The notes beneath the pieces are model-generated. The model saw only the letters and a program-made list of their open reading frames with translations. It ran no database searches and was not told where the DNA came from. A stretch of 64,000 nt of DNA, taken from assembly GCA_043228905.1 (NCBI GenBank), contig JBHGNT010000013.1, positions 4,464,001 to 4,528,000 of the forward strand, read 5' to 3'. The stretch comes from Azolla caroliniana (Eukaryota; Plantae; Polypodiophyta). Position numbers and translations under genes: made by a program. Of this stretch, positions 7,404 through 64,000 are shown piece after piece (position 1 is the stretch's first letter; the number at the start of each line of letters is the position of its first letter).

Positions 7404-7415
7404 GCTCTGATACCA
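7404..7415 (-). promoter_or_regulatory. Primer-binding site (tRNA-iMet) of Copia B
   Basis: TGGTATCAGAGC on the minus strand, 2 nt from the LTR end. Confidence 0.92.
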
Positions 7416-7417
7416 GA

Positions 7418-7725
7418 TGTTGAAGACAAGGCCGTCAATGCGGAAGATCAAATAGCATTCGATTGGTGTTGAGTACCTGCGTATGACAGTTTCCAAGATC
7501 GTGCACAGAGAGAGAGAGAGAGAGAGAGACACAAAAGACTTTCTATTCAATAGAAACAGTAATACAACCAATAATACAACCAACCTTACAAAAAGGTTAC
7601 TAGGTCACTTTATATAGTGACAAACTTAGGGCAACTACCCTTTATGCTAATTACACAAATGGCCCAAACTTGAGCTATACAAAAGGGATAGTGTGAATAC
7701 GTCCATTATACACTTGTATTCGACA
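7418..7725 (-). repeat. 5' LTR of Copia B
   Basis: Direct repeat of 2243-2550, followed by the PBS. Confidence 0.96.
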
Positions 7726-10204: not shown

Positions 10205-10422
10205 TAATATGAACCCTCTCTACTTGAGTGATTGCCCTCAGTCATATTTATACTTATATGAACTTAGGGCTATTTACAAATATAGCCTCAATAGGCTTAC
10301 TCAAAACATATTTACAAATATGTCTTCTCTTACAGTTCTCACCGGGTCCCTTCGATCTGGTTTCCGGATCTCTTGTGGTTCTCACCGGGTCTATCTGATC
10401 GGGAGGGACCGATATTCCAACA
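10205..10422 (-). repeat. Fragment (U3 end) of another Copia LTR, Copia E-like family
   Basis: Near-identical to ~54288-54474; ends TTCCAACA and abuts Gypsy A protease sequence. Confidence 0.8.
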
Positions 10423-11503
10423 TGTAGGGTTGCCCAAGAACCACCGAATGGGAAGTCGAATCTTGCACAAAAAAGGGTTGATCGATCTCTATATCCCCGA
10501 TTGTGACTTGAATGTTGGGACACGCTCCATAAAGATCTTCTGTTTCGTTCGTCACCGCACGAATCTACCATCCATGGTTCGTGTTGATAGGACATCTTCC
10601 CTTCTTGTAGAAATCCTTCAACATGAGGTTAATCTCTGATCCGTGGTCTATAAGAGCCACAATTGTCTCTTTCTTCTTAGATCCAATCTTGACCAGAGTT
10701 TCCATTGTTACTCTTGCCCAATGCGGTCATGTATAATGATTGTTCACTAGATCTTCTTCTTTCTCTTCCGTTCTTGCCATAGTTATGGCATTGGTTGTCA
10801 TCTTTGTTGAAATTCCCTCTTCCTCATCCACTTGTTGTCGTTTACATTTAATAAGATCGATGATGGTGTCATGGAACTCCTTTGCAATTCCAAGTTGTTC
10901 TCTCAATGTAAGGTCAATACGGCTATCAAGCACTCTTTCTTCAAGAACCTTTCTTAAGTTGGTTGTTTGTTCAATATCCGACCTTAATTTGTATGTTGGC
11001 ATCGATCTATCCTTCCCCTTCTTGGCATTCTCTTCAATGGGTTGAGTCGGTTCCTCGGCTCTCTTGTTTGAGGTTCCATCTTCTTGACGTGTGGTCTTGA
11101 TCATCTCTTCCTTCTTCTTAAAGCTTCTTGTGTCATGTTTCTTAGAGGGACTTCATCTAGATCCGTCCTCTTCTGCTTCTCATCCACAAACACTTCGTGG
11201 GTTTCACATATGACCTCTGCGGAGATCGTGTTGTTATCAACTGGATCTGCCCACCCGGTAAGGTCTTGTACATGAAGGTTGGCTAGCTTTGCATCATCCG
11301 AATTAAAATTCCCTTTTTTTCGTATTTGAGGAAGGTTGGCCAAAACCCAGTTCCCGGTTTAATCATTCCAAGCTTCTCCTTCCCAATTCTTATACCGGCG
11401 GATGCGGCATAGTGTATAGCTTCGACATGGCTCACATCGGCCTCATCCATGATTTTCTTTAGACCACCCCAAACGAAATTCACTTGCAAGGGCTTTCGAG
11501 TCT

Positions 11504-14500
11504 CACTTCGGCCATTGCTACGGGCAATGAAGAACTCCTGTTCATTTGTGAACAGACGAGTGCAAATCTTGCAAGTGAAGATTGCACGTGGGTGATTGAT
11601 TCTAGGGCATCGTTCCACATAACTCTGTCGAGAGAGTATTTCTCGACTTACATAGCCGGGGATCATGGCTATGTAAATATGGGTGATAGTGGAGAGTGCA
11701 GGGTAACCAGAGTTGGAAGTGTTTGCTTAACAACATTGACAGGGTGTCGACTGACACTGAAGGATGTTCGACACGTCCTCGATATCAGATTGAATCTGAT
11801 ATCGACTGGAAGGTTAGGTGACGAAGGCTATAGTGGTAGCTTTTGAAATGGCAAGTGGAAGTTCTGTCGAGGAAATGTTATAGTGGCCCGAGAACAGAAA
11901 GAAGGCACATTGTACGTGATAGTGGCCCGACTGTGGAAATCGGAAGTAAATGTGGCAGCTGACTCGGCAGGTGAGATATGGCATAAGAGGCTACACCACA
12001 TGAGTGAGAAGGCCGACCAGAAACTTCTACCAGACTTCAAGGGCGTGCATCTGGAGAAGTGTGTCAACCATAGTTGGAAGACATGGGCCTTCGTACTGAA
12101 GTCGAAGGATCAAGTACTGTTGGTTTTCAAGGAGTTCTAGGCAAGAGCCGAAAGAGAGTCGGGTCGGAAGTTGAAGGTTTTCTGAACCGACAATGGTGGC
12201 GAGTACAAAGGGCAGTTCGAGGAATACTGCAAGTGCCAAGGTATTCGGATCGAATACACAAGAAGGTAGGCTATAGGCTATGGGACCTAGTCGACAAGAA
12301 GGTAGTGAGAAGTCGGGATGTAGTCTTTCTAGAAGATAAGACGATTGAAGAATGGAAATCACAGAAGTCAGAATCAACTCCCTAGTCAACCTCGACTACC
12401 ATCGACTTAAGGCCAAGTGAGTTGTCACCGATAGCTATAAGGAGACAGCTGGCCGATAGAGCCGAATCTGAATCGATCGACTCGGAGAGACCGGCTAACT
12501 ATGAGTCAAAGTCGACAGAGCTGCAAAGATCAATTGATGAATATGAGTTGGAGTTGTCCAACCAGGAGAGGCCGATTGACGAGTAGAATCCCGAGCAGAG
12601 AGAAGAGTTGGCAGAGACATTTGAAAGAGAGCCAACAACGAGTGGAAGAAGATACCCACTCAGGGAGAGGAAAGCACCGTCTACATATGGTAGCCAATAC
12701 AACCTCTTGACTGATGAAGGTGAACTAGAGTGCTATGAAGAAGCCATTGCCGACGAGCACAGAGAGAAATGGCTGAGCACAATGCAAGATGAGATGGAAT
12801 GCTTGCACGAGAACTACACCTACGACCTAGTAGAGTTGCCGAAAGGTAAGAGAGCACTCAGGAATAAGTGGGTCTAGAAGGTGAAGACTGGAGAAGCTGA
12901 CACTGATCCTAGGTATAAAGCTCACATAGTGGTGAAAGGTTTTCATTAGAAAAAGGGTGTCGACTTTGATGAAATATTCGCAACAGTCGTGAAGATGACA
13001 TCCATTCGAACTAATATGAGCATAGTAGCCAGTATGGATCTGGAGATCGAATAGTTGGATGTCAAAACCGCCTTTCTGCATGGGGAGCTAGAAGAAGAAA
13101 TCTATATGCAGCAACCCAAAGGCTTTTAGGAGAAAGGGATAGAGAATCTGGTGTGTTGACTGAAGAAAATCATGTACGGTCTGAAACAAGCTCCACGCGA
13201 ATGGTACGAGAAGTTCGAGTCCTTCATGATCGAACACTGGTTCTAGAAAACACAGGCTGATCAATGTGTGTTCGTCAAAAGGACGAAGAAGGAGACTTCT
13301 TGATTCTCGTGCTATATGTTGATGACATGTTGATAGTCCGTCAAGATACAAGGAAGATTGGGCAAAATGTTGCATATGTGTGTTTAGAATAGATGTAGCG
13401 TGAGAGCGTGTGAGACAGAGAGTGAGTGAGAGTGGCACCATAGCTGTGTGCGTAACAACAGACGCCAAGAGCCCTGCATGGCTGACACACTCGAAGGACT
13501 GTTGTAACATTTTCTGTTGTGACTTGAATGTTGGGACATGCTCCATAAAGATCTTTCGTTTCCTTCATCACCGCACGAATCTACCATCCATGGTTCGTGT
13601 TGATAGGACATCTTCCCTTCTTGTAGAAATCCTTTGACATGAGGTTAATCTCTGATCCGTGGTCTATAAGAGCCACAACAGTCTCTTTTGTCTTAGATCC
13701 AATCTTCACCGGAGTTTCCATTGTCCACTCTCGCCCAATGCGGTCGTGTATAATGATTGTCCACTAGATCTTCTTCGTTCTCTTCCGTTCTTGCTATAGT
13801 TATGGCATTGGTTGTCATCTTTGTTGAAATTCCCTCTTCCTCATCCACTTGTTGTCTTTTACGTTTAATAAGATCGACGATGGTGTAATGGAACTCCTTT
13901 GCAACTCCGAGTAGTTCTCTCAATGTAAGGTCAATACGGCTATCGAGCACTCTTTCTTAAGTTAGTTGTTTGTTCAATATCCGACCTTAATTTGTATGTT
14001 GGCATCGATCTATCCTTCCCCTTCTTGGAATTCTCTTCAATGGTTTGAGTTGGTTCCTCGGCTCTCTTGTTTGAGCTTCCATCTTCTTGATGTGTGGCCT
14101 TGATCATCTCTTCCTTCTTCTTAAAGCTTCTTGTGTCATGTTTCTTAGAGGGACTTCATCTAGATCCGTCCTCTTCCACTTCTCATCCACAAACACTTCG
14201 TGGGTTTCACATATGACCTTTGTGGAGATCGTGTTGTTATCAACTGGATCCGCCCACCCGGTAAGGTCTTGTACATGAAGGTTGGCTAGCTTTGTATCAT
14301 CCGAATTAAAATTCCCTTTTTTTTCGTATTTGAGGAAGGTTGGCCAATTCCCAGTTCCCGGTTTAACCATTCCAAGCTTCTCCTTCCCAATTCTTATACC
14401 GGCGGATGCGGCATAGTGTATAGCTTCGACGTGGCTCAGATCGGCCTTATCCATGATTTTCTTTAGACCACCCCAAACGAGATTCACTTGCAAGGGCTTT

Positions 14501-14512
14501 CGAGTCTCACTT
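11504..14512 (+). repeat. Second, deletion-riddled unit of a tandem segmental duplication of 994-11508
   Basis: Collinear with 994-11508 minus Copia B; junction microhomology CACTT at 994, 11504 and 14508. Confidence 0.9.
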
Positions 14513-17866: not shown

Positions 17867-20234
17867 TGTACAATGTGTGTGCACACAAAGGCAATTAAAT
17901 GTGCACATGCAAAAGAAAAGGGAAAAGAAAGGGTGGAAAGGAGATATAGAAGCTCGTGTAAAAAGTAAGAGAGAGGAGAGATAAAAAGTAGAGACAAGAC
18001 ATGCTATGAATTTGTAGATATAGAATTATATAGTATATAAGAGAGAGTTAATGGACTAGTGGATAATAAAATTGACTTCTAGCTAGATGTGCACGGTTCA
18101 AATGTGGTCTTACAATGCAGCGTGATTTAACGAATTTTATTTCTTTTGCATTGAAGACAAAATTGGTGACCCCCTTCCTTTTTTCCTATAAAAGGAGGTC
18201 GAGGGGGGCTCATTTGAAGGACGTTTTGGGAGGAGGAGACTATCGCCATTTCTCCTTTGGAGCTCTTCATCTTCTTTTTCACCATTTCTCTTCATCTCAT
18301 ACCCCTTCATCCCCTAATTGCCACGTGCTCGTCTTCTTCGTGTTGGCACTCGAAGTGCTCGTTTATGGTGCTTGTGAGCCCCAGCTTTATTGGTTCGACG
18401 TTGCTTCGTTTCCATTTCTCGTTGCGAGCCTGTGTGCTTGTTGTTCGAGTGGTCGTGGTTTGTAGGCGTCGGCATTTTTGTGGTGCTCATGTGTTCGTCT
18501 TCGTCGTGTTTGTGCTCCGTGTTCAGATTTGCTTTTGTCTCTAAGGGCATTTAGTATTTATGTATTGTTGAGCCTGTGGTTAACTAGAACTTCCTACATT
18601 GTAATCAAACCCTATTTAATAAAGGGCCCTCTTGCGTTGGAATTGAACACATATTTATTTCTTTAGACAATATCATTCATGTTCTTTCTTTCTTTCTTTC
18701 TTTGTTCTCGTCCCCCTGTATGTTCGGCAATCTTGTGATGAGGGAGCGTTTTGAGCATGCCCATGCACCTCTCCTCCTCGTAAACGCGTACGAGCATGTG
18801 TGTGCGTTTGTGTCTTCCTTGTACGTTCGACTGTCTTGGGACGAGGGAACGTTTTGGGCGTGGCCATGTACCCTTCCTCATAAAGGCGTACGAGCATTTG
18901 TGCATGTGCTTGTGTCTTCCTTGTACGTTTGATTGTTTTGTGATGAGGGAGGGTTTCAGGCGTGCCCATGCACTTGTCCTCCTCATAAAGGCGTACAAAC
19001 ATTTTGTGTGTGTGTTTGGGTTATTCTTGTCTGTTCGGCCATCTTGTGATGAGGTAGCGTTTCGGGCGTGCCCATGCACCTCTCCTCCTCATAAAGGCGT
19101 ACGAGCATTTGTGCATGTGTTTGTGTCTTCCTTGTACATTCGGTCGTCTTGTGACAAGGGAGCGTTTCGGGCGTGCACATGCACCTCTCGTCCTCATAAA
19201 GGTGTACGAGCATTTTGTGCATGTGTTTGTGTCTTCCTTGTACGTTAGGTCTTCTTGTGACGAGGGAGCGTTTTAGGTGTGCCCATGCACCAATCCTGCT
19301 CATAAAGATGTACGAGCATTTGTGCGTGTGTTTGTGTCTTCCCTGTACGTTTGGTCGTCTAGTGACGAGGGAGCGTTTCGGGCGTGCCCATGCACCTGTC
19401 CTCCTCATAAAGGAGTACGAGCCTTTTCTGTGTGTGTTTGTGTTATTCTTGTCTGTTCGGCCGTCTTGTGATGAGGGGGCGTTTCAGGCGTGCCCATGCA
19501 CCTCTCCTGCTCATAAAGGCATACGAGCATTTGTGCATGTGTTTGTGTCTTCCTTGTACGTTCAGTCATCTTGTGACGAGGGAGCGTTTCGGGCGTGCAC
19601 ATGCACCTCTCGTCCTCAGAAAGGTGTACGAGCATGTTGTGCATGTGTTTGTGTCTTCCTTGTACGTTCGGTCGTCTTGTGATGAGGGAGCGTTTCAGGT
19701 GTGCCCATGCACCACTCTTGCTCATAAAGATGTATGAGCATTTGTGCGTGTGTTTGTGTCTTCCTTGTACGTTTGGTCGTCTTGTGACGAGGGAGCATTC
19801 GGGCTTTTGCCCATGCACCTCTCCTCCTCATAAAGGCGTACGAGCATTTGTGCTTGTGTTTTGTGTTTTCCTTGTATGTTCGACGTCTTGTGACAAGGGA
19901 GCATTCAGGCGTGCCCATGCACCTCTCCGCCTCATAAAGATGCATGGGCATTCGTGTTTGTGTTATCATCCCATTGTGCGTTCATCTTGTGTGCTCACCT
20001 TTGCTTGTACCTGTTTGATCACTTGGCTGGTGCAGTGATCTCAAAAACTCGACGACTCGTGATCAGCAAAAGACACTGGCCCCACAAAAGGGGCAAGGAG
20101 CCCTTGATCAGGAAGGGTCGGGATGTGGTATTGTCGTAAAGCAAACCTCGGGTCTTGTCTATCCCTTCGTACTCTCTAGTCCAAGACCCTCGTGGTCCCA
20201 CCCAAGTAACACACACGTGGGAATCTTCGCGACA
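17867..20234 (+). repeat. 5' LTR of Gypsy B (~2.37 kb)
   Basis: TG..CGCGACA ends; TATA box CTATAAAAGG ~18186; repeated in part at 27771-28712. The left end is inferred from the TSD. Confidence 0.8.
18710..19960. repeat. Tandem array of ~12 units of ~105 bp inside the Gypsy B LTR
   Basis: GTGTCTTCC anchors at 18810, 18912, 19123, 19229, 19334, 19545, 19651, 19756. Confidence 0.95.
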
Positions 20235-27770: not shown

Positions 27771-28712
27771 TTCCTTTTTTCCTATAAAAGGAGGTCGAGG
27801 GGGGTTCATTTGGAGGACGGTTTGGGAGGAGGAGACTATTGCCATTTCTCCTTTGGAGCTCTTCATCTTCTTCTTCACCATTTCTCGTCATCTCATACCC
27901 CTTCATCCCCTCATCACCATGTGCTCGTCCTCTTCGTGTTGGCACTCGAAGTGCTTGTTTACGGTGCTCGTGAGCTCGAGCTTTGCTGGTTTGACGTTGC
28001 TTCGCTTCCATTTGTCATTAAGAGCCCTTGTGCTCGCCGTTCGGGTGGTCGTGGTTCGTAGGGATCGGCATTTTTGTGGTGCTCTTGTGTTCATCTTCGT
28101 CGTGTTCGTGCTCCATGTTCGGATTTTCTTTTGTCTCTAAGGGCATTTAGTATTTATGTTTTGTTGAGCTTGTCGTTAACTAGAAGTTGCCACATTGTAA
28201 TCAAACCCTATTTTATAAAGGGCCCTCTTGCGTTGGAATGGAACACATATTTATTTCTTTAGCCAATATCATTCGTGTTTTTTCTTTCTTTCTTTCTTTG
28301 TTCTTGTCCCCTTGTACGTCCGTCCATCTTGTGATGAGGGAGCGTTTCGGGCATGCCCATGCACATCTCCTCCTCATAAAACCGTACGAGCATTTGTGCG
28401 TGTGTTTGTGTCTTCCTTGTACGTTCAGCCGTCTTGTGATGAGGGAGCATTTTGGGCGTGCCCATGCACCTCTTGTCCTCAAAAAGGCGTACGAGAATTT
28501 GTGTGTGTGCTTGTTTCTTCCTTGTACGTTCAGTCGTCTTGTGACGAGGGAGCGTTTCAAGCATGCCCATGCACCTCTCGTCCTCATAAAGGCGTACGAG
28601 CATTTTGTGTGTGTGTTTGTGTCTTCCTTGTACGTTCGGCCGTCTTGTGATGAGGGAGCATTTCGGGTGTGCCCATGCACCTCTCCTCCTCATAAAGGTG
28701 TACGAGCATTTT
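27771..28712 (+). repeat. Doubly truncated 3' LTR of Gypsy B with ~4 satellite units
   Basis: Collinear with ~18175-19110. Confidence 0.88.
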
Positions 28713-29757
28713 GTGCATCCAGTTTTGGAAGCCATATCTCGTCTGACTGCGCCTGCCGACCCAGTGAGATATGTTTTGTCGTATCCGGTTCGTGCAGAAC
28801 CGGTGCCACCAGTTCTTGTCATATAGAGACAGTTTTCGACGTTCTGCCCTCTACCGCCAAGCGGGGAATCAGGCTCCTTTCCAGATCTGGGCCCGATCCG
28901 TCCCCTTGCTACTCCTTGTCGTGCCTTCTGCCAACGTTCGAGGGTTTCAACGAGTTCCTCCACCGCGTCTTCCTCGGCGGTTTCGTGATTGATTCGTTGG
29001 GCCAAAGTGTCCATCTCCCTATCATGCCGGCTCAGTTTGATCTTGATGGGCTTGGCTAGTTTTTCCACCAAGTTTTCTACCGGCACAACTTTCTCCACCG
29101 GCTCTTTCTGGCCTGACTGCTCCGTTTCCTGTTGAGACGAGCCACCTTCTGTCCAACCGGGGGTGTGCTTGGCGAGGAGCTGCTACCGTTTCGTCGTTTT
29201 ATTCGGCGTTGTTTTTGTCGATCGGCCTCGTTTCCTTGCTTGAATGGCTAGTGGCAGTGATACCAATAGGAATAGCCATTGTGCCACTGCAGTCGAGGCC
29301 TTCTTCCCATCCTCAATCAAGTGAATGGTAGCCCGCAAGGAATCTGTCACTATAACCAGCCAGTCGACCTTCAGGCCTTCATACGTCGCAATGATAAAAC
29401 TGACTTTGTTTTTAGGCATAGTTGGTGGGCGATGATGCACAAATCCGTATTCGATTAACACCCATGCCACCTCCCAAAATAGAGGGCCATCGTTGCCTTG
29501 TGTGCGGTATGCTTTGCTAGCTATGGAGTACTCACTAAAGTACTCTATCAGTGTCTCAATGGAGGGGTTCTCGATGGAGCAGAGGTCTCCTTCCGGTAGG
29601 CCGGTAAGGGCCTGCACCATGGCTTATGTGATCTCCTCGAGGTCAATCTGTAATGCGACCTTCTCGGTTCTTCATGCGATGGTGCCTCTGCTATACGGAG
29701 GAATCCCTCCAATTCGTATCTGCTGAGCCAATCTTTCGCCATATCGGATAGAGCCAT
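28713..29757 (-). pseudogene. N-terminal part of the Gypsy C 3' extra (env-position) ORF
   Basis: MALSDMAKDWLSRYELEGFL.. and MVQALTGLPEG..KVDWLVIV..RKRGR peptides downstream of integrase on the same strand; frameshifted. Confidence 0.65.
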
Positions 29758-29974: not shown

Positions 29975-30247
29975 TGACAGGAACTACATGCTCCCGATGA
30001 ACGATGCTCGGCCACAACCGAGCTTAGAATCATACACAGAAAACAGGAAATGATAGCACGACACAATGGAGAGAAGAGTACACAAGATGTTTACGTGGAA
30101 AACCCAAACACGGGAAAAACCACGGCAGTCCACTAACTGCTAACTATCACTATGTAACAATATACAATAGATGAACACAGAGGCAAGGACCTCTTGTTCA
30201 CTGTCTTCGCCATAGGCGGCGGTTACAACAGAGATACGAACTCTTCG

Positions 30248-30278
<31 letters not shown>

Positions 30279-30610
30279 GTACACAGTTGCGCGCTCTAAT
30301 CTTGCGCCAACAAGAATGACAATAACTATATTCTTCTCTGTTTGCCCTAAGTCATATTTATACTAATATGACTTTTTAGCTATTTACAAATATAGCCCCG
30401 ATGAACTCTCAGAAACATATTTACAAATATGTCCCTTCATCTGGTGAGCACTTCTCACCGGGCCTTCACCATCCGGGTCTTGCCGGGTACTCCTCATCCG
30501 GTGCTTGCCGGGTACACCACATCCGGTTCACACCGGGTCTTCCGTAACCGGGTACTCCTCATCCGGCACTTGCAGAGTACACCACATTTGGAGGGACCTG
30601 TTTCCCAACA
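29975..30610 (-). repeat. 3' LTR of Copia C
   Basis: Direct repeat of 34674-35274 with one extra ~24-bp CATCCGG unit and a longer CT tract. Confidence 0.95.
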
Positions 30611-30773
30611 AACTCCCCCTTCACTCCGGCATGGGGTGTCTTAACTGTCTGATCCGCTTCCGGCATGCATCCAGCTTGTGAGGTATCAATACTTTGGTCA
30701 GCATATCTAACCCGTTCTCGGCCGTGTGGATCTTCGTCAGCGCGAACTCTCGATCTTCTACTCGCTCCCGGAT

Positions 30774-33062
30774 CTAGTGATACCTTCGCTGGATATGCTT
30801 CGTCCAGGAATGGTAGGTCGCATTCTTAGCAAGGTGGATGGCACTTTGACTGTCACAATAGATACGGTATTCATCTTGCCGGATACCGAGCTCTCCGATG
30901 AAGTCCTTCATCCATAATATTTCCTTGCCGGCTTCCACAGCCGCCATGTACTCCGCCTTCGTGGTTGACAATGCAACCGTCTTCTGCAGCCTCGACTGCC
31001 ACAAAACAGTTCCCCCTGCATATGTCATTACATACTCGGATGTAGACCGGCTGGTATCCACATCAGCCGACATGTCCGAATCGGTAAAATCGTCAAGTTG
31101 AGGTTTTCCGGAGCCGAATCGTAGACACATATTCGAAGTGTCCTTCAAGTACCGGAGTATCCATTTGACTGCGTTCCAGTGCTCCTTGCCGGGATTGCTC
31201 ATGAACCGGTTCACCACTCCGACAGCGTATCCAATATCTGGTCGAGTACACACCATTGCGTACATTAAGCTCCCGACAGCAGAGGCATATGGAAACTTCA
31301 TCATATCCGCCTTCTCTGCTTTCGTCTTCGGGCTTTCCTTACTAGATAATCCGCAGTTTGTCGGCAGTGTCGATCCGACCGGTTTCGCATCTGACATGTT
31401 GAACCGCTGAACCACCTTTGTCACGTATTTCTCCTGTGACAGCCACAATTGCTTCGTTTGCCGGTTTCGGATGATATGCATCCCCAGCATTTGTCCTGCC
31501 GGACCCAAGTCTTTCATTGAGAAGGTCCGGTTGAGAGCCTTTTTCAACATCTGTATTTTGGCTTGGTCCTGCCCGACGATCAACATGTCGTCCACGTACA
31601 AAAGGAGTATCAGGAAGTCGTCTCCTTCGAACTTCTTCACAAACACGTAGTGATCGGCTTGCGTCTTGTGGTACCCTTGATCGGTCATGAAGGAGTCAAA
31701 CTTCCGGTACCATTGCCGGGGGGCCTGCTTCAACCCGTAGAGGCTCTTCTTCGACCGGAAAACCAAGTGTTCCTTCCCTTTCTCCACGAATCCTTCCGGT
31801 TGCTGCATGTAGATCTCCTCTTCGAGGTCACCGTGAAGGAATGCCATCTTCACGTCTAGCTGCTCTACCTCGAGGTCCATGCTTGCCGCTATACTTAGCA
31901 CCGTCCGGATGGAGGTCATCTTTACTACTGGGGCAAATATCTCGTCGAAGTCCATGCCCTTCTTCTGTTGGAACCCCTTCACCATGATCCTGGCTTTGTA
32001 TCTCGGGGGGTTGCCGGCATCTCCCGGTTTCAACTTGTACACCCACTTGTTTCGGAGTGCCCGCTTTCCTTTCGGCAACTCCACCAGTTCGTACATATGG
32101 TTCTCATGCAGGGAATCCATCTCATCCTGCATGGCACTTAACCATTTTCGGCTGTGGGTGTCATCCTTCGTTTCTTTGAAGCTTTCTGGCTCCCCCTCAT
32201 CGGTTAGCAGTACATGCTTTGCATCCGGAAATCTCCGGGGGGACCTCTCTCTAAGAGGATATCTCCGTCTCTGGGCTTCGGTAACCAGCTCCTCCATTTT
32301 CTCTTCATCTGAATCCGATTCGGGGTCTTGGTCGGTTCGGGTTCCAGCTTCCTCTACTTCTTCTTCTGCCGGTTCGGTATCCTCACCGTAACCGGCTGGT
32401 TCCTCGAGTGTTAACCGGTCTCTTGCCAATTGGGTCTGCTCATCGTAGAATCGATCCTTACCGGTCGACTCGGAGTTCATTATCTTCTTCTCCGACTCCC
32501 AGTCAGCGACCGTCTTGTCCTCCATGAAGATAATATCTCGACTCCGGAATACCTTTTTGTCGACCGGGTCCCACACTCGGTAGCCGAACTCATCGTCGCC
32601 GTAACCGAGGAATATGCATGGCCGGGTCTTTGGATCTAACTTTCCTCTCCGGTCCTTAGTTACATGCACGTACGCGAGACACCCGAATACCTTCAGATGC
32701 TGGTAGGACACTTCCTTACCGGTCCAGACTCTCTGTGGCGTGTCTCCGTCCAAGGGTATTGAGGGTGATCTGTTTATCACATATGTTGCCGTCGACAGTG
32801 CCTCAGTCCAAAACTTCTTGGGTAGTTTTGCATGCGCAAGCATACTCCAGACCCTCTCCATTATGGTCCGGTTCATCCTCTCGGCCAACCCGTTTAGTTC
32901 CGACGTCTTCGGCACGGTAAATTCCAGTCGGATTCCCTTCGAGTGACAGTACTCCTCGAACTGCCCCCGGTATTCACCTCCGTTATCTGCTCGAACCACC
33001 TTCAGCTTCCAGCCGGTTTCTCTTTCCAGTCTAGCGTGGAGCTCTTCGAAGACGGATAGCAC
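30774..33062 (-). CDS. Copia C integrase-RT-RNase H open segment (762 aa)
   Basis: RADNGGEY, LLYVDDML, FTDSDMSAD; bounded by premature stops. Confidence 0.88.
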   Translation of the reverse strand: MLSVFEELHARLERETGWKLKVVRADNGGEYRGQFEEYCHSKGIRLEFTVPKTSELNGLAERMNRTIMERVWSMLAHAKLPKKFWTEALSTATYVINRSPSIPLDGDTPQRVWTGKEVSYQHLKVFGCLAYVHVTKDRRGKLDPKTRPCIFLGYGDDEFGYRVWDPVDKKVFRSRDIIFMEDKTVADWESEKKIMNSESTGKDRFYDEQTQLARDRLTLEEPAGYGEDTEPAEEEVEEAGTRTDQDPESDSDEEKMEELVTEAQRRRYPLRERSPRRFPDAKHVLLTDEGEPESFKETKDDTHSRKWLSAMQDEMDSLHENHMYELVELPKGKRALRNKWVYKLKPGDAGNPPRYKARIMVKGFQQKKGMDFDEIFAPVVKMTSIRTVLSIAASMDLEVEQLDVKMAFLHGDLEEEIYMQQPEGFVEKGKEHLVFRSKKSLYGLKQAPRQWYRKFDSFMTDQGYHKTQADHYVFVKKFEGDDFLILLLYVDDMLIVGQDQAKIQMLKKALNRTFSMKDLGPAGQMLGMHIIRNRQTKQLWLSQEKYVTKVVQRFNMSDAKPVGSTLPTNCGLSSKESPKTKAEKADMMKFPYASAVGSLMYAMVCTRPDIGYAVGVVNRFMSNPGKEHWNAVKWILRYLKDTSNMCLRFGSGKPQLDDFTDSDMSADVDTSRSTSEYVMTYAGGTVLWQSRLQKTVALSTTKAEYMAAVEAGKEILWMKDFIGELGIRQDEYRIYCDSQSAIHLAKNATYHSWTKHIQRRYH

Positions 33063-34643
33063 CTAATCCTTCGTCTTCAATGGTGTGGCCCACAACTTCC
33101 GGCTGTGGTCATTTATGAACGTCACAAAGTACTGCGATCCTACATGTGACTTCGTGTCCAATTGACACACATCAGTATGCACCAACTCCAGTGGTGCATT
33201 ACGTCTCATCGGTGGCCTTGGTCGGAAGGAGGTCCGGTTTTGCTTACCGGCCAGACAATCAGTGCACTTCTCCAAGTGCACGTTCTTCACGGGAATGAGG
33301 TTGTCGTCTGCAAGCCTCTTCATCCCCTTCTCGCTCATGTGACATAGCCTTTTGTGCCACAGCTCACCGGTAGTGTCGGATGCCACGTTCACTTCCTCCG
33401 GACATAACCGGGCATTCATCAGGTACAACGTGTTTACCTTCCGGGCCCAAGCCACAATCAGGCTCCCTTTGCTGAACTTCATAACACCGTTCTGGATGCT
33501 ACCCGTGTAGCCTTCATCATCTAGCCGACCGGCTGATATCAGGTTTAGATGAACCTCCGGAACGTGTCAGACATCCTTCAGCAGCATCTTGCATCTGGTT
33601 GGTGTTGACAACCACACGTCTCCTATGCCGACAATTCGGCATGTACCTTCATTCCCCATCCGGACACAGCCGTGATCAACGGCTGAGTAGGATGAGAAGC
33701 ATTTCTAGTCCGGGGTAAGGTGGAACGACGCTCCGAAGTCGCTGCCAAGGTTTATCTCACTCTCCTCGGTGATGAGAATCAACTCTTCTTCACTTGCCGC
33801 GATTGCCGTCGTTCCCTTCCGGTCCGTTCCCCTCCGGTCTTTACCGTTCCGGTTCGGTGTCCGCTTCGAATCGGTACCATCGGTTTCCTTGTCTTTCCGG
33901 AAATGCCGACAGTTCTTCTGGAAGTGTCCCGGCTTGCCGCAATAGAAGCAAGTAGGCCTCCCCCTTGACTTTGACCGTGTCCCCGACTTTTCCCCGTTCT
34001 GGGGACTACGGTTCCCTTGTCTTCTGCGTTCCTATTCGGTAAGGAGCGCTTTGGAGTCGGAGCTCGTATCCTTATCTTTCCGACGTGCCTCCTCCTCTAG
34101 CAAGCTCGACTTCACTCTTGCTAGGGATAACCGTTTCCCTTCCGGCCCGGCGTTGCCCAAAGTGACAACCAACGTCTCCCAGCTATCCGGGAGGGAACCG
34201 AGCAGGAGTAGCGCTGGTACCTCATCGGCGAGAGGTACTTCCAATGATGTTGCCTGGTGGATCAGCCCCTGGAAGGCAATCATGTGCTCCGCCATGCTAG
34301 AGCCATCTCGGTACCGGAGTCTTACTAGCTTCCGGAATACCGAAACCTGATTAACAACATTTTTGTTTTGAAACATAATGCCGATCTTCTCCCAGAGCTC
34401 ATGAGCCTTGCTCTCTTCATTGAAGTTGTTGTATAGGCTCATGTCGATGAAGCACCGTATGTACGCCGTTGTCTTCATGTGCATCACCTCCCATATCGTG
34501 GCGTCGATTTTGTCCGGTCTCTTGTCCCCGAACTGAACCGGCAACCAAAGATCTTTAACCACGAGCATGTCCCTCATCTTCGACTTCCACACTGAATAGT
34601 TGGAGCCGGTGAGCTTGAACATGCCACCCAACGATTCGTCCAT
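33063..34643 (-). pseudogene. Copia C gag-protease-GAG-pre-integrase (disrupted)
   Basis: Gag ORF 34032-34643, CCHC ~33905-33950, small deletion through the protease WVVD motif, in-frame stops. Confidence 0.88.
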
Positions 34644-34673
34644 TGTCTGTGTCGCTTCTCTCTGATACCACTT

Positions 34674-35274
34674 TGACAGGAACTACACGCTCCCGATGAA
34701 CGATGCTCGGCCACAACCGAGCTTAGAATCATACACTGAAAACGGGAAATGATAGCAAGACACAATGGAGAGAAGAGTACACAGGATGTTTACGTGGAAA
34801 ACCCAAACACGGGAAAAACCACGGCAGTCCATTGACTGCTAACTATCACTATGTAACAATATACAACAGATGAACACAGAGGCAGCAACCTCTTGTTCAC
34901 TGTCTTCGCCACAGGCGGCGGTTACAACAGAGATACGAACTCTTCGTCTCTTTCTCTCTCTCTCTCTGTACACAGTTGCGCGCTCTAATCTTGCGCCAAC
35001 AAGAATGACAACAACTATATTCTTCTCTGTTTGCCCTAAGTCATATTTATACTAATATGACTTTTCAGCTATTTACAAATATAGCCCCGATGGACTCTCA
35101 GAAACATATTTACAAATATGTCCCTTCATCCGGTCAGCACTTCTCACCGAGTCTTCACCATCCGGCTCTTGCCGGGCACTCCTCATCCGGTTCACACCGG
35201 GTCTTCCGTAGTTGGGTACTCCTCATCCGGCGCTTGTCGGGTACACCACATCCGGAGGGACCTGTTTCCCAACA
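34674..35274 (-). repeat. 5' LTR of Copia C
   Basis: TG..CA ends, adjacent PBS. Confidence 0.95.
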
Positions 35275-35389
35275 AATAGTATGTGTACACCGCATGGTGC
35301 GCTGTAAATGGCTGTTGTCACATATTTTCATGGTGGCCGTTCATAATTCACGTCTTTTTTTCTTTGTTGTTTTTTTAAACTTTAACCAG

Positions 35390-53213: not shown

Positions 53214-54057
53214 AAAGGTTGTTAGGTACATTAGGTACGGTACGGTACGGATACCATACGTATATAACGTATTAATACCCGTATAGTACCTCCCAATTTA
53301 AAAATACATTAAATATGTTTTCTTAATATGTTAAATACTTATAAAATACGTACTTTATGTATAATACGTTAAATACTTCTAGAATTTGAAAATTATTTAC
53401 CTTTCTAAAAAATATCTATAATATTGTAAAAAACATCTATGTTTACACAATTTTGTGATGTACAATATAGTTCTACATCCTAAAATGCATAAAAGACATT
53501 TTAACATTTCACATCCTAAAATACTTGTAGTAATATGGATGTCGATATTCCCTTATTCTATAAATCAGTGTAAGTGTGTATTACGATGTTCTACTTCAAA
53601 TTTTAATGATTTACAATTATGCCTTCATAGATTGAGGAATCGTCTACGATTATCACACTCATAATAGGTTTCTCTTTTCTTCGTTTTCTTCTTCTTCTTC
53701 TTCTTCTATCTTCTACGATTATCACACTTTGAGTTAGGACAGGTTTATGTCTTCTTTTCTCTCTTTTTCTTTTTCTTCTTCATCTTCTTTATCGTCGTCA
53801 CTTCTATTCTTCTTTCTTCCTTCCTTTGGCTTTTTTTTCACTAAAATCTTTTTTCTCTTTTGCTTTTTGTTGGGGTTTTACTTACATTTTCTTTATAAAT
53901 ATGTATTATACTAGTTTTTTTATAAATAGGTCAAATACCGTATTGGACAAATGTAAATGATATTTGACTGAACAACATTGAGGTATAGTATGTACTATAC
54001 AAATGATGAGGTATTATACGTATTTAAACGTTAAATACGGCTACGTAAACAACCATG
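53214..54057 (+). mobile_element. Complete non-autonomous hAT-type element (844 bp) inserted in the Copia E LTR
   Basis: Termini AAAGGTTGTT..AACAACCATG; 8-bp TSD GAGTACAC/GAGTACAT (53206-53213 / 54058-54065); subterminal TACG repeats; no coding capacity. Confidence 0.88.
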
Positions 54058-56147: not shown

Positions 56148-56290
56148 TTTCCTTTCGGCAACTCCGTAAGTTCATATGTGTGGTTCTCATGCAGGGAATC
56201 CATTTGATCCTGCATGGCACTCAACCATTTGTGGTTGTGGGTGTCTGTCTTTGCTTCTTTGAAGCTTTCCGGCACCCCCTCATCGCTGTC

Positions 56291-56363
56291 ATGATATGGC
56301 AAGACTCGAACCCATGACCTTATACTACATGGGTCGAGCTCTTGACCATTAGACTATACATTG
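56291..56363 (-). other. tRNA-like / Pol III type-2 promoter module, antisense in the LTR U3 (second copy ~61537-61609)
   Basis: Minus strand A box TAGTCTAATGG (56356-56346), variable-loop AGGTC and B box GGGTTCGAGTC (56313-56303) at canonical tRNA spacing. Cloverleaf stems are degenerate, so this is not a functional tRNA. Confidence 0.6.
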
Positions 56364-56417
56364 TAATACATAGAATATTATTTTCATTTACGTTTTATTA
56401 TAGAAAATTGATGTATA

Positions 56418-56460
56418 TTCCAGATTTCTCTGGAACATTCTAGAAACTTCAGGAGTATTC
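56418..56460 (+). promoter_or_regulatory. Heat-shock element array upstream of the LTR TATA box (also 61664-61706)
   Basis: TTC-GAT-CTC-GAA-TTC-GAA-TTC-GAG-TTC in exact 5-bp phase; TATAAAA at 56471. Confidence 0.72.
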
Positions 56461-56734
56461 CTTAGAACACTATAAAAGGAGGCATAAGGCATTATTTCGA
56501 ACCAAATCGGTTCAACGCCAGTCTTAAGCCTCCTAGCTACTGTACACTTTCTTCACATAATATATATATTTTCTTATCATCACTCACTCACTCTCTCTCT
56601 CTCTCTCTCTCTCGATCTCTCTCTCCCTCCCTCTCACTCACTCTTTCCTTCTCTCGAGAGTTCTTTACCTCTCTTAGTACTAATACTTCTTTTAGTACTA
56701 ATTCCTTCTCTGTCTTAGTACTGTTCCTGACAGT

Positions 56735-56747
56735 TTGAACCGATTTG
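56735..56747 (+). promoter_or_regulatory. Self-priming PBS (non-tRNA) of Gypsy D
   Basis: TTGAACCGATTTG is the exact complement of CAAATCGGTTCAA at 56503-56515, 32 nt after the TATA box. Confidence 0.8.
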
Positions 56748-56805
56748 CCTACCTTCTGTCTCTCTCATTTCCTACTAATCTCTTATTCCTCTTTTCTTTC
56801 ATCCC

Positions 56806-57957
56806 ATGGACACTGTTAGCGCTGAAGAATATCAATCTGTTTTCTCGGAATTTCAATGCTTGAAAGAGAAGTTCCATGCTTTGGAACAAGAAAACCAACG
56901 GTTGTTGGGGGATCTTCAGCAAATCTCCTTAGAAAAGCAACAAACGCAACAACAACATGGGGAACTTGCGTTACGCGTGCAACAACTCGAAGCAACCATC
57001 GTAGCGATGCAACAACAAGGGCCCGGAACACAAGGGATTCGTAAAGAACCCAAGATTGTCTTTCCCACGAAGTTCGATGGAACGCGATCACAGTTTAGAG
57101 GGTTCCTTAACCAGGTACGATTAGTTATTCAAATGCATCCTTCCCGGTATCCCACCGATGCATCACGAGTGGGTTTAGTAGGCACTTTGTTAAGTGGCCC
57201 AGCGTTGGCATGGTTCGCTCCACTATTAGAAAAGGAATCCCCGTTACTCAACAATTTTGAAGAGTTTCTAGGTGAGTTTAAAGCATGTTTCGAAGATACT
57301 GACAACATTAGGACCGCAATCAACAAAATTCGGCGATTACGCCAAGGTGACCATCCAACCTCTGCATATGCTGCAGATTTTCGCCTACTCGCCGCCGATA
57401 TCCCTTGGGATGATCAAGCGTTGATGGAGCAATTCCGTTATGGTTTACGCAACGACGTCAAGGATTTACTCTTGACCTTCCCCGAAGAGCCAAAGTCCTT
57501 AACAGAAGCAATCAGTCGCGCGGTGAGATGTGACAACCGCCTCTTTGAGCGACGTTCGGAACGACAACTACAGATGCCGAGGGCAAGATCAGAGCCCACC
57601 TACGCCTCAGTGGTAGCAAGACCTTTTCCGAGGGAGTCATATAATGCGCCTCCAGCGAATACTCCGACTCCGATGGAGATTGACACTACACGTCGTCGAG
57701 GGCCATTATCCGAAGAAGAAAAGCAGCGACGCCGTACAAATCAACTATGTCTTTACTGCGGTGGACCAGGACATATTGCAATAAATTGCCCCCATAGGTC
57801 AAGAAGACAGGTAAACCAAATAGTCGCTAGTTCTAATTGTACTAAACCCGAGCCTATTTCAGTAGGGATATCTGATAGTCCTAATAGTACTAATAGCCCA
57901 GATCTAGCAAACAGATTTGATGTCCTTAGTCAGTTAGAAGAAGAGTTAAACGACTAA
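56806..57957 (+). CDS. Gypsy D Gag (383 aa, open)
   Basis: N-terminal coiled coil, P.KFDG.R..FRGFL capsid (PEG10/Rtl1-like), CLYCGGPGHIAINC knuckle. Confidence 0.92.
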   Translation: MDTVSAEEYQSVFSEFQCLKEKFHALEQENQRLLGDLQQISLEKQQTQQQHGELALRVQQLEATIVAMQQQGPGTQGIRKEPKIVFPTKFDGTRSQFRGFLNQVRLVIQMHPSRYPTDASRVGLVGTLLSGPALAWFAPLLEKESPLLNNFEEFLGEFKACFEDTDNIRTAINKIRRLRQGDHPTSAYAADFRLLAADIPWDDQALMEQFRYGLRNDVKDLLLTFPEEPKSLTEAISRAVRCDNRLFERRSERQLQMPRARSEPTYASVVARPFPRESYNAPPANTPTPMEIDTTRRRGPLSEEEKQRRRTNQLCLYCGGPGHIAINCPHRSRRQVNQIVASSNCTKPEPISVGISDSPNSTNSPDLANRFDVLSQLEEELND

Positions 57958-60900
57958 GTCCAGCCAAAATAGGAGCCGTTTGGTTGGACAGCCCTAGATC
58001 TGTGCAACCCATTAGTGGTTCCATTCCCTCTAAGCAAGTTAGTGATATGTTCGTAGCCCAAGTAATAGTTAGTACTAAAAGTACCCCTCCAGTACATGTC
58101 CTAGCACTCCTAGATTCTGGAGCTAACTCTTGCTTTATGGATAAGAAATTTGCTCAAGCTCATAAGATATCCCTAAGAAAACTCCAGTGTCCAGCCTCTG
58201 TAGTAGTCATTGATAGACGTCCCATTGCTTCCGGAAATATCATAGAAGAGTCTGAGCCCATTAATATTGTCCTAGATAACTTAGCATGTGTAGTATCATT
58301 TAATATTATTAGTATCCCAGAACATCCCATAGTTTTAGGATTACCATGGTTCGAGTTACATAACCCAGACATAGATTGGAGAACAAGAGAAATCCGGTGT
58401 CGACAAACCCAAGGGTCAACTCAGAAGATGGCAACCATTTCGCTACGTTAGTTGCGTAAAGAAGGGCACAAGGAGGAAATGTTCCTCTTTGCAATATCAG
58501 TAAACCCCTCCAGCACCACTAAAGAAGGATCCACCGTTCAACTTCTCGAGAAGTATCGTCATTACGCCGATGTCTTCGATAAAGTACAAGCCAACACACT
58601 TCCTCATCATCGACCGTACGATTGCCCCATCGATTTACAACCGGGAAAAGAGCCGCCATGGGGACCGATCTACAATTTGTCACCAACCGAGCTGGAAGTC
58701 CTTCGGGCCTATATAGAGGAGAATTTGGAAAATGGTTTCATCTGGCATTCGAAATCTCTAGCCGGCGCGCCCATTTTCTTCGTCAAGAAAAAGGATGGAT
58801 CGCTTCGTCTTGTTGTAGATTACCGTGGCCTAAATAAGGTTACAATTAGGAATAGGTATGCTCTTCCCCTTATCTCAAGTCTTTTAGAACGGATCAATGG
58901 TGCCAGGTTCTTCACGAAGATCGACTTACGGGGAGCATATAACCTCGTACGGATCCGACCAGGAGACGAATGGAAGACCGCGTTTCGCACCAGATATGGG
59001 CACTTCGAGTATACGGTCATGCAGTTCGGCCTCACTAATGCACCAACAGTCTTCCAGCACATGGCTAATGATATATTCCGAGATCTATTGGATGATTGTT
59101 TGATCATCTATTTGGATGATCTACTAGTTTATTCAAAGACCCAAGAAGAACATGATTCTCATGTACTATTAGTACTAAAACGACTTCGAGAACATGGTCT
59201 GTATGCAAAGCTGGAAAAATGTAGTTTCGGGTGCAACCAAGTGGAATTTCTCGGCTACATCATTTCGTCAGAAGGCATCTCCATGGACCCAGCTAAGGTC
59301 AAAACGGTGGTAGAATGGCAGACTCCACGTTCGGTGCGGGATGTGCAATGCTTCCTAGGCTTTGTTAATTTTTACCGGAAGTTCATACAAGATTACTCAA
59401 AGATCGTTCTACCTCTCACACAACTTACCAGGAAGGGACAACCGTTCATTTGGTCTGAAGAAACGGACGTGTCTTTCAAGAGTCTTAAAAAGGCATTTAC
59501 ATCGGCTCCAATTCTAGCTCATGTCGATCCGGAAAAACCATTTATTATCGAAGCTGACGCATCGAATTTTGCATTGGGGAGCATTCTTTCACAACAAGGG
59601 AATGATGAGAAGCTACATCCTGTGGCTTTTCACTCACGCAAGTTTGATGCCGCCGAAATCAACTGCAAAATTCATGATAAGGAGCTATTGGCAATAGTGG
59701 ATTCTTTTATGCAATGGAGGCATTTTCTGGAGGGATCCTCTCATCCGGTCACCGTATTTAGTGACCACAAGAACCTTGCCTACTTTCAGGATGCTCGTGT
59801 GTTGAATCAACGTCAAGCTCGGTGGGCCCACTTCCTCACGCGTTTCGACTTCAAAATTACATATCGTCCGGGGAAGCACCAAGGGAAGGCAGATGCATTA
59901 TCACGGCGTTCGTATCTAGCACCCCGTCCCGGCGAGCCAGCTTTCAATAACCAAAAACAAGTCATCTTGGGACCGGCACGACTACAAGCAACAAAGATCT
60001 TTGACATGCCCATGGATTCCCGCGTTATCGATACCATACGCGAAGATTTGAAGGCAGATGCGTTCGCCCAAGTTATACTAGCACAAATTGATCCCTCTCG
60101 AGCGTCGTGTTCACAGTCGCAACCACCAAGTACGGACTATCGGCAATTCAAATACCATGATGGATTACTCTTCTTTAAAGAACTTTGTATGTTCCTAATG
60201 GTTCTTGCCACCTTCAAGTAGTACAAAACTGTCATGACACATATACAACTGGGCATTTTGGTAGTACTAAAACACTACATTTAGTACAACGATCATTCTG
60301 GTGGCCCTGTATGCGACAATTTGTCGAGGATTTTGTTCGGACTTGTGATACATGCTGCAGAGCGAAAATGCCAAGGCATCATCCATATGGTTTATTAGAA
60401 CCATTACCAATTCCAAGCAAGCCGTGGCAATCCATTGCTCTAGACTTCATCACAGATCTTCCAGTCTCTAAGGGGTTCAATGCGATTCTAACGGTGGTCG
60501 ATCGATATACGAAGATGGCTCATTTCTTGCCATGTACTAAGGAGATCTCTAGTGAAGACACTGCCGAAATTGTCATGCGTGAAGTATGTCGGCATCATGG
60601 ACTTCCCGATAGTATCATCAGCGACTGTGGACCCCAGTTCGTGTGAAAATTCTGGAAGCACCTTTTTAACATGCTCAAGGTCACTTGTAACCTCTCCTCC
60701 GGCTACCACCCACAAACCGACGGCCAAGCCAAACGAACCAATCAAACGCTGGAGCAGTATCTGCGGTGCTTTCTCAGCTATCATCAGGATGACTGGGCAG
60801 ATATTCTCCACTTCGCCGAATTTGCCTATAACAACTCTATCCATGCATCCACGAAAGTTACGCCATTTTATGCTTATACGGGATGTCACCCCCGGTGGTG

Positions 60901-61540
60901 TGTACTTGAAACCCCAGAGGTGTCCACAAATCCTTGCGCAGAGGATCGTTTGGAGAGGTTACGCAAGATACAAGCGGATTTATCTACTCATCTCCAACAA
61001 GCTCAACAAACACACAAGATTTATGCGGATCGTCATCGACTCCCATCTAGTTTTAACATTGGAGATCGGGTATAGCTACTCCGACGACACATCAAGACTA
61101 CTCGCCCATGCGAGAAGTTGGATTATCGGCGATTAGGTCCTTTCCGTATTATCGGAAAGATTAATGATGTCGCTTTTCGTCTTGATCTACCTCCACAACT
61201 TCAGATACATTTGGTGTTTCATAGTTCTCTCCTCGAACCCTATCAAGAAAGCACCATCCCAGGACGTATTACACAGCCTCCACCCCCGATCGAGGTTGAA
61301 GATGGACCTGAGTACGAGGTTGCCGCCATCCTTGATTCCAAGCTTGTTCGCAACAAGCTCTACTATCTAGTCGACTGGCTAGGATATAGTCCCAACGAGC
61401 GTACTTGGGAACCGATAGAGAATGTCACCAATGCTCGTGCTCTTCTTGAAGACTTCCATCGTCAATATCTAGACAAACCGGGTCCTCAATCCAAAACGAC
61501 TCGTTACACTCGTGATTTTAAAAGGGGGATAGTGTCATGA
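57945..61540 (+). pseudogene. Gypsy D Pol in the -1 frame: protease, RT, RNase H, integrase, chromodomain (3 stops, 1 frameshift)
   Basis: LLDSGA, IIYLDDLL, EADAS, HHCC, IALDFI, GPF, EYEVAAILDSK..YYLVDWLGY..TWEP. Stops end at 58451, 60646, 61075; frameshift ~60183. Confidence 0.93.
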
Positions 61541-61824
61541 TATAGCAAGACTTGAACCCATGACCTTATACTACATGGGTCGAGCTCTTGACCATTAGAC
61601 TATACATTGTAATACATAGATATTATTTTCATTTACGTTTTATTATAGAAAATTGATGTATATTCCAGATTTCTCTGGAACATTCTAGAAACTTCAGGAG
61701 TATTCCTTAGAACACTATAAAAGGAGGCATAAGGCATTATTTCGAACCAAATCGGTTCAACGCCAGTCTTAAGCCTCCTAGCTACTGTACATTTTCTTCA
61801 CATAATATATATCTTTTCTTATCA

Positions 61825-61862
<38 letters not shown>

Positions 61863-61973
61863 CCTCCCTCCCTCCCACTCACTCTTTCCTCCTCTCGAGA
61901 GTTCTTGACCTCTCTTAGTACTAATACTTCTTTTAGTGCTAATTCCTTCTCTGTCTTAGTATTGTTCCTGACA
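61533..61973 (+). repeat. 3' LTR of Gypsy D
   Basis: Direct repeat of the 5' LTR, preceded by PPT AAAAGGGGGATAG. Confidence 0.96.
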
Positions 61974-63914
61974 ATCGCTTAGCAACACGTGCTTTGCATT
62001 TGGAAATCTCTAAGGGGCTCTTCTCTCTTTGAGAGGATATCTCCGTCCTCCATTTGTTCGTCATCCGAATCCAATTCGGGATCTTGTCCAGTTTCGGTGT
62101 CTTCTTCTTCTTCTTCGGCCAATTCGGTTTCTTGTCCGTATCCGGCTGGTTCGTCTAGTGTCATCCGGTTACCGGCTAACATCCGGTTTTTAATCGGGTA
62201 TATCCTTGTGTCCTCAAGCCGGTTTTCATTGGATGATCCAGAGTTCATCAACTTCTTCTCCGACTCCCAATCGGCAATGGTCCTCTCTTCCATGAAGCCT
62301 ATGTCCCGACTCCGGAACACGTTCTTGTCGACCAGATCCCACACCCGGTAACCGAACTCATCATTGCCCTATCCAAGGAATATGCATGGCCCAGACTTCG
62401 GATCCAACTTTGCTCTCTTATCCTTTGCAACATGCACATATGCGAGACACCCGGTCACCTTCAGATGTCAGTAAGACACGTCCTTACCTGTCCATATTCT
62501 TTGCGGTGTGTCTCCGTCCAAGGGTACTGAGGGTGATCTGTTTATCACATAGGTTTCCGTCGTCAACGCCTTATCCCAAAACGTATTGGGTAACTTTGCA
62601 TGTGCTAGCATGCTCTAGACTCTCTCCATTATGGTCCACTTCATCCTTTCGGCCAGCCCATTCAATTCCATTATGGTCCAGATTTCCTTCAATCGGTAGT
62701 ACTCCTCGAACTGCCCCCGGTATTCTCCTCCGTTGTCCGCTCGAACCGCCTTCAGTTTCCGGCCACTTTCTCTTTCCACACTTGCGTGGAGCTCCTTGAA
62801 GACGGATAACACTTGATCCTTCGTCTTCAGTGGTGAGACCAACAACTTCCGGCTGTGGTCATCTATGAACGTCACAAAGTACTGCAATCTGGCATGTGAC
62901 TTCGTGTCCACTTGACACACACCGGTATGCGCCAGCTCTAGTGGTGCCTTCCATCTCATCGATGGTCTTGACCGGAAGGAGGTCCATTTTTCTTGCCAGC
63001 CAAGCAATCAGTGCACTTCTCAAGTTGCACGTCCTTCACTGGAATGAGATTGTCTTCGACAAGTCTCTTCATCCCCTTCTGGCTCATATGACACAATCTC
63101 TTGTGCCACAACTCACCGGTAGTGTCAGATGCTACGTTCACTTCCTCCCGGCATATCCGAGCATTCATCAAGTACACTGTGTTGACCTTCCAGGCTCGAG
63201 CCACTATTAGGCTCCCTTTGCTGAACTTCATAACTCCGTTCCGGATGCTACCCGTGTAGCCTTCATCATCTAGCCAACCGACTTATATCAGGTTCAGTCG
63301 AACCTCCGGAACGTGTCAGACATCCTTCACCAACAACTTGTATCCGGTTGATGTTTTCAACAACACATATCCTATGTTGACAATTCGGCAGGTCCCTTCA
63401 TTCCCCATTCAGACACAACCATGATCTTCGGTTGTGTAGGATGAGAAGCATCTCCAGTCCGGTGGTAGGTGGAATGACGCTCCGGAATCAACAACCCACG
63501 TTGTCTCGTCGTCGACAAGGTTTAACTCATTCTCCTTGGTAATGAGCATTGGTTCTTCTTCACTTGTCGCGATTGCCGAAGTTCCTTTCCGATCCGGGCC
63601 TCTCCGGTCTGAACTCTTCTTCGAATCGATAGTGCCGGTTTCTTTCTCTTTGCAGAAATGCCGACAGTTCTTCTGGAAGTGCCCCGGCTTCCCACAGTAG
63701 AAGCAAGTAGGCCTCCCCCTTGACTTCGACCTCGTTCCCGATTTGTCCCGGTTTTGAGGACTCCGATACTAGCCTCTTCCTCGGTTGTGGTCATCTTCGG
63801 TAACTAAGGCCTTCGGATCGGTTCCAGACTCCCACTCCTTCCAGTGAGCTTCTTCATCTAGCAAGCTTGATTTTACCGTTGCTAGGGACAATTGTTCTCC
63901 TTCTAGCCCGGTGT

Positions 63915-64000
63915 ATTATACAAATGAGGTATAGTACGAACTATACAAATGATGAGGTATTATACGTATCTAAACGTTAAATACGGCTATGTAAACAACC
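63915..64000 (+). mobile_element. Right-end fragment of the same hAT-type family
   Basis: Matches ~53978-54054 (..TTAAATACGGCTATGTAAACAACC); directly abuts truncated Copia E gag. Confidence 0.8.

Follow-up and report, generated by a model that had tools for sequence, protein, structure and literature searches.

A Tcn1-like chromovirus of Azolla caroliniana that very probably primes reverse transcription with its own RNA, and fold-back integrants as a likely by-product

Self-priming of reverse transcription is proven for the yeast element Tf1 and only predicted for the Tcn1 elements of plants; cleavage of a self-primer by RNase H, as reported in the available part of PMC7175516, is likewise proven only for Tf1. 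In REXdb (PMC6317226), self-priming is predicted for 83% of 1,500 plant Tcn1 elements, the criterion being a complement 10 nt or longer that starts 0-5 nt after the LTR; in the accessible sections of that paper this is a BLAST-based prediction, without covariation, TSS spacing or by-product analysis. The primer motif described below was not found in the part of its supplement text that was available, although the per-element tables may list it. The available text of PMC2864245 reports no self-primer in a Selaginella element, and no Tcn1 by PCR in 26 ferns and horsetails. The idea that our element extends the host range of Tcn1 was rejected, because PMC13477047, in its accessible part, already lists Tcn1 for ferns. 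The mechanism is already predicted for plant Tcn1; what is new is the member described here and the evidence from within its genome, above all the fold-back integrants. We consider it highly probable that this family starts reverse transcription from its own RNA, and that mis-transfer of the primer copy has made these integrants.

The element occupies positions 56287-61973 of the window, i.e., the whole 64,000-nt stretch of Azolla caroliniana DNA that was analysed. It is a complete Ty3/gypsy chromovirus of about 5.7 kb in a defective copy, nested within a minus-strand copia element, and the finding is at its 5' end. The limits of the LTRs are fixed by their TG..CA ends and by the target-site duplication ATCGC; the 5' and 3' LTRs differ by 13 substitutions in 441 aligned columns. 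The pol frame of this copy is broken by stops at 58449, 60644 and 61073 and by a frame change near 60180-60220. The features are as follows.

56282-56286, plus strand: left target-site duplication ATCGC
56287-56732, plus strand: 5' LTR, 446 nt, TG..CA (LTR-LTR comparison and duplication)
56471-56477, plus strand: TATA box, TATAAAA
56504-56515, plus strand: predicted self-primer, R nt 1-12, with the predicted TSS at A56504, between C and A
56516-56523, plus strand: conserved C-R-C-C-A-G-T-C downstream of the primer (nt 13 unpaired in 67/67 relatives)
56733-56734, plus strand: GT spacer between LTR and PBS (GT in 62/67, AT in 5/67), likely the 2 nt removed by integrase
56735-56746, plus strand: primer-binding site (PBS), 12 nt, complement of 56504-56515
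56747-56750, plus strand: mutation hot spot just 3' of the PBS (38/51 nearest-neighbour pairs differ at the first base, where end gaps accumulate)
56806-57957, plus strand: gag ORF, open, with Retrotrans_gag, Ty3_capsid and a weak CCHC
57930-61540, plus strand: pol in the -1 frame, with PR, RT, RNase H, integrase and chromodomain
61313-61462, plus strand: chromodomain with three aromatic cage residues, group I (cage definition from the available part of PMC3350952)
61520-61529, plus strand: polypurine tract (PPT), followed by TAG and then the 3' LTR
61533-61973, plus strand: 3' LTR, 441 nt; the primer sequence recurs at 61749-61760
61974-61978, plus strand: right target-site duplication ATCGC

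The gag-pol overlap contains GTTAAAC followed by an inverted repeat (window 57945-57990), by its sequence a likely -1 frameshift signal, and the motif or a near variant is present in most relatives. The rest of the window consists nearly entirely of nested copia and non-chromovirus gypsy pieces (53979-54054, 63925-64000, 29975-35276, 994-14512), no host gene was seen in it among ORFs of at least 170 aa, and an array of tandem repeats, each about 105 nt long, is found in two places (18714-19991 and 28310-28718). Elsewhere in the assembly, a contig carries plastid psbZ (L219:1055-1246), 97% identical to a Salvinia entry, with ACG at the expected start and CAA at the expected stop, a pattern that likely reflects C-to-U editing.

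Sequence comparison makes membership in the Tcn1 clade likely. The named relatives of the RT-RNase H region are vertebrate and fungal elements with 44-63% identity, the seed-plant matches have 42-46%, and the closest matches reach up to 92%; greater similarity to vertebrate and fungal than to seed-plant elements is what would be expected for Tcn1. The element combines a caged group I chromodomain, a non-seed-plant host, a 5-bp duplication, and overlapping gag and pol; it should be noted that an aromatic-cage group I chromodomain is not exclusive to Tcn1 and is also found in Galahad/Galadriel of Selaginella. Plant Tcn1 elements, as far as they are described in the available parts of PMC6317226 and PMC2864245, share with it the Ty3/gypsy caged chromodomain, the 5-bp duplication, the gag/pol overlap, the LTR-complementary site and a non-seed-plant host, and their length range of 5.5-9.4 kb includes the 5.7 kb of the Azolla element.

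The 13-mer CAAATCGGTTCAA at 56503-56515 has its complement TTGAACCGATTTG at 56735-56747, which begins 2 nt (GT) past the end of the 5' LTR at 56732. The initial annotation had placed these 13-mers in this way and had noted the lack of a TGG-type PBS, and both points hold, there being no TGG within the first 8 nt after the LTR. Of its 13-bp duplex from 56503, 12 bp (56504-56515/56735-56746) are conserved, whereas the thirteenth pair, C56503:G56747, involves the most variable base; G occupies that position in 8 of the 30 closest copies, and the present copy is one of the 8. Among 67 relatives, the position-0 pair forms in 15%, compared to 91-100% for the 12 inner pairs, and position 13 pairs in 0%; the conserved duplex is therefore 12 bp, with A56504 as its first base, 33 nt past the first T of the TATA box, and the primer is probably the 12 nt starting at 56504, rather than 13 nt starting at 56503. 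When the LTR was shuffled 3,000 times with its dinucleotide composition kept, it never contained a complement of at least 12 nt to a stretch starting 0-5 nt after its end (the best reached 11), and the fold of 56503-56810 has a z-score of -5.8, with none of 100 shuffles equally good. When 14 copies were folded, the primer duplex appeared in all 14 with a mean pair probability of 0.85-0.94. In addition, nt 14-15 and 18-20 are able to pair with the GT spacer and the GAC at the end of U5, and this predicted short extension on the U5 side (2+3 bp, with nt 13 unpaired) is part of the best fold of 8/14 copies, this copy not being among them. A search of Rfam gave 0 matches.

To follow the duplex among relatives, we chose the sample by gag and not by the PBS: the first 80 of the 150 loci from a gag-profile search were taken, of which 67 had both anchors (13 were dropped for lack of an anchor, and L126 was retained although its LTR is that of another element). 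These fall into five primer types, each with a matching PBS, namely A (the family of this element), B, C, D (11 bp) and E, and both sides have changed at positions 2, 3, 4, 5, 7 and 8. Pairing is perfect in 45/67 copies, compared to 16.9 +/- 3.1 after random re-pairing of primers with PBSs (maximum 31 in 10,000). The compensatory changes sought by the initial annotation are thus present, the complement being kept in five sequence types, and yet the independent events are few, because in the gag tree C, D and E are each a single clade and A and B are intermixed. The change between A and B sits in a CpG on both sides and is present as G-U in 4/67 copies; for one chosen PBS variant, the matching primer change was found in 1/4 copies.

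The first T of the TATA box is located 32-33 nt upstream of duplex position 1 in 63/67 relatives, and the base before position 1 is C in 63/67. A subfamily of 13 loci with an unrelated U3 (L358-L365, L367-L371), apparently the result of a promoter swap, has kept a type-B primer, with TATA 33 nt upstream. The constant TATA spacing and the start at A after C fit 56504 as the predicted TSS. Several observations concern the bases around this start. Five normal copies (L075, L081, L104, L129, L291) have a PBS extended by 2-9 nt complementary to the pre-TSS bases, possibly by short fold-back or upstream starts, and a 5'-truncated copy (L372), in which foreign sequence adjoins R nt 1 precisely, may represent the cDNA of a full RNA. 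In types A, B and E, and not in C or D, bases just 5' of the predicted TSS (window 56495-56515) are partly complementary to the 3' half of the primer; in RNA from the 3' LTR, the second primer copy could be masked by a hairpin of this kind.

Priming by a host tRNA was examined with 55 distinct tRNA sequences of the genome, an incomplete set, in which no 3' end matches the PBS (best 7/12). With the covariation in five types, this supports the tRNA-independent, Tf1-like self-priming that had been proposed at the outset. The same set contains 10-nt matches to T-arms. An alternative explanation is that a host tRNA fragment ending in the T-loop binds the PBS and that the copy in the LTR is a by-product. 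The T-arms of Thr, Ala and Cys tRNA genes match 10 nt in types A and B and 9 nt in D and E, but the search pattern was built to find them, the matches end 18-20 nt before the tRNA 3' end, only 6 nt match in type C, and the PBS tracks its own LTR at positions 1-12. The matching Thr and Ala genes look organellar by their sequence context, and priming by a tRNA fragment that ends in the T-loop is not known; we give this explanation hardly any weight. A separate observation is that the primer end and the bases that follow (window 56509-56519) resemble a tRNA T-loop or a Pol III B box in types A, B, D and E, and not in C; the resemblance may be chance.

The sequence immediately behind the PBS is a hot spot of change: nearest pairs differ on average at 37% of positions +1 to +4, compared to 4% beyond +10 and 2% in U5, a comparison in which neighbours were picked on their flanks, lowering the background. 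At these positions, plus-strand synthesis would run up to the 5' end of a 12-nt primer. In the available part of PMC11042837, the RT of Tf1 is reported to add untemplated bases to cDNA ends. The hot spot also bears on the explanation that the duplex is structural, serving packaging, dimer formation or translation control, while something else primes. Covariation proves pairing or copying, not priming, and the third duplex of Tf1 is missing here, as this explanation would allow. However, 67/67 copies have one end of the duplex 2 nt from the LTR end, the point at which priming has to begin, its other end coincides with both the hot spot and the fold-back junction described below, and no other primer site was found; a purely structural role is very unlikely.

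If the RNA primes itself, transcription would start at 56504 and nt 1-12 of the RNA would anneal to the PBS at 56735-56746. By analogy with Tf1, the RNase H of the element would cut after nt 12 (between 56515 and 56516), and RT would extend the 12-nt primer across GT into U5. The plus strand would end on the primer copy, whose normal partner would be the minus-strand complement of the PBS. Since the primer derives from the LTR, its DNA copy could instead anneal to R nt 1-12 of a plus-sense U3-R molecule, and copying of U3 to its end would yield a second integrase end and, upon integration, a fold-back integrant.

We searched the genome, in which 2,424 LTR-PBS junctions are within 2 mismatches of that of this element, for a pattern in which the PBS runs into the complement of the bases preceding position 1. 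There were 66 matches, and the reversed control had 0. Sixty matches were fetched at length, of which 50 have the structure U5-GT-PBS-inverted U3, 8 are plain LTRs read backwards, and 2 are other; 5 of the first 30 were not refetched (4 plain LTRs and one 9-nt extension) and 1 match was not fetched. The inverted U3 ends at LTR nt 1 in 44/50 and continues into the PPT in 0/50. In 48 distinct loci, an exact 5-bp duplication is present at the far end in 18, and one with a single mismatch in 8 more (one uncertain). The usual layout is a minus-strand LTR and internal region, a switch to plus-sense R-U5, the PBS, and the inverted U3. The share of fold-back loci is 2-3% of the A/B junctions that bear a PBS, counted either as 1,629 (exact, last base not A) or as the 2,424 loose ones. 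For type C, the same class was predicted on the basis of that type's primer and U3, and was then found, with 36 matches and 0 in the control; of the 30 loci examined, 29 extend to the start of U3, 2 of those running on into the PPT, and in the one locus where the far end was reached the duplication is exact. An assembly artefact was considered and ruled out, given the many contigs, the different duplications and the 0-8% difference between the two U3 copies; one public contig of 64 nt crosses a fold-back junction with 17 nt on the U5 side, below the 31 nt required, and was not counted. A literature search on this class and on TSS work in mosses, which most subscription papers lay outside of, found no description of the class.

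In the A/B loci, the start of the R segment falls at nt 11-13 in 5, at nt 14-19 in 7, further in in 28, and in U3 or at a whole LTR in 8, and at nt 1-10 in none; in the 29 distinct type-C loci it falls at nt 11-14 in 4, at nt 17-21 in 5, further in in 18, and in U3 in 2, and again at nt 1-10 in none. Thus, 21 distinct loci start at nt 11-21 and none at nt 1-10, for which p is about 1e-6 if starts were uniform. In loci that seem to include nt 11-12, most of the A's either come from the donor or are extra bases standing singly. The R starts suggest a cut after nt 12, the edge at nt 13 being what strong-stop DNA made on RNA so cut would leave. The edge could also arise if plus-strand DNA folded into a hairpin and was nicked at the hairpin's border, and, genome-wide, LTR pieces outside the fold-back class start at nt 13 and at nt 1 in 2 versus 2 distinct loci (13 of the 15 nt-1 matches in this count belong to one subfamily with another U3); for these two reasons the RNA cut after nt 12 is likely, not firm.

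The inverted-U3 loci might alternatively be post-integration products, formed when the host replication fork switched templates at the 12-bp inverted repeat, in which case self-priming would hold and the loci would be uninformative on reverse transcription. Indeed, when the most frequent layout is read on the opposite strand, it amounts to a normal element with R13-U5 inverted and the next internal part missing, its ends and duplication being kept, and many inner junctions have 3-5 nt of microhomology. On the other hand, two loci (L303 and L307) contain a whole LTR, PBS and inverted U3, with a single duplication enclosing two U3 ends; no normal insertion can have U3 ends next to both halves of an exact duplication. 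A third locus (L310) contains the same nt-13 junction twice, and this repeated junction requires a cDNA template. Furthermore, the mapped donors are element sequence, and several nt-13 joins are blunt or carry an untemplated base. Since these three loci are hard to make after integration, fork switching is disfavoured, and we regard it as unlikely. The fold-back loci are instead likely mis-transferred cDNAs, of a kind that only a self-primer would allow. We are inclined, with somewhat more belief than doubt, to see in them a cost built into self-priming: a few percent of cDNAs would mis-transfer and integrate, and these fossils would record the primer length and the cut after nt 12 in a plant and offer, for any LTR family, a test of self-priming that needs sequence only.

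The combination of covariation, fixed TATA spacing, hot spot and fold-back integrants backs what was a BLAST prediction with several lines of evidence from within the genome, and names exact positions that can be tested, namely a start at 56504 and a cut between 56515 and 56516. Should the fold-back class prove general, self-primed and tRNA-primed families could be told apart by a short pattern search, with no bench work; the class also accounts for rearranged elements that LTR finders would mis-annotate.

The comparison with the Tf1/sushi group draws on the available parts of PMC7175516, PMC4600332, PMC11042837 and 10.1101/2022.12.06.519325. Tf1/Tf2 of Schizosaccharomyces pombe, Tj1 and Tosmo1-3 are likewise chromoviruses in which a segment of the 5' end (predicted, in our case) pairs with a PBS adjacent to the LTR. 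The Azolla element shares with the group the order PR-RT-RH-IN with a chromodomain, an LTR-complementary PBS that covaries, and, within the incomplete tRNA set, the lack of a tRNA primer site, and among named matches its RT-RNase H is nearest to vertebrate and fungal elements. It differs from Tf1 in having two ORFs, and its primer has 12 nt (11 in type D) compared to 11 in Tf1, the sequences being unrelated. From the three-duplex 'pretzel' of Tf1, as described in the accessible part of 10.1101/2022.12.06.519325, only the central duplex is present; that on the U5 side is short and predicted, and the downstream duplex, between the bases that follow the PBS and the LTR, was seen in 0/14 folds. 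The closest parallel to the fold-back integrants is provided by the integrase-independent insertions of Tf1 at PBS-like sites, reported in the available part of PMC11042837, in which a copy of the self-primer in single-stranded DNA, located at the cDNA's 3' end, anneals elsewhere, as would be the case here. In Tf1 this copy anneals to chromosomal DNA, whereas in Azolla it apparently anneals to the element's own R start, U3 is copied, and the product is flanked by a 5-bp duplication.
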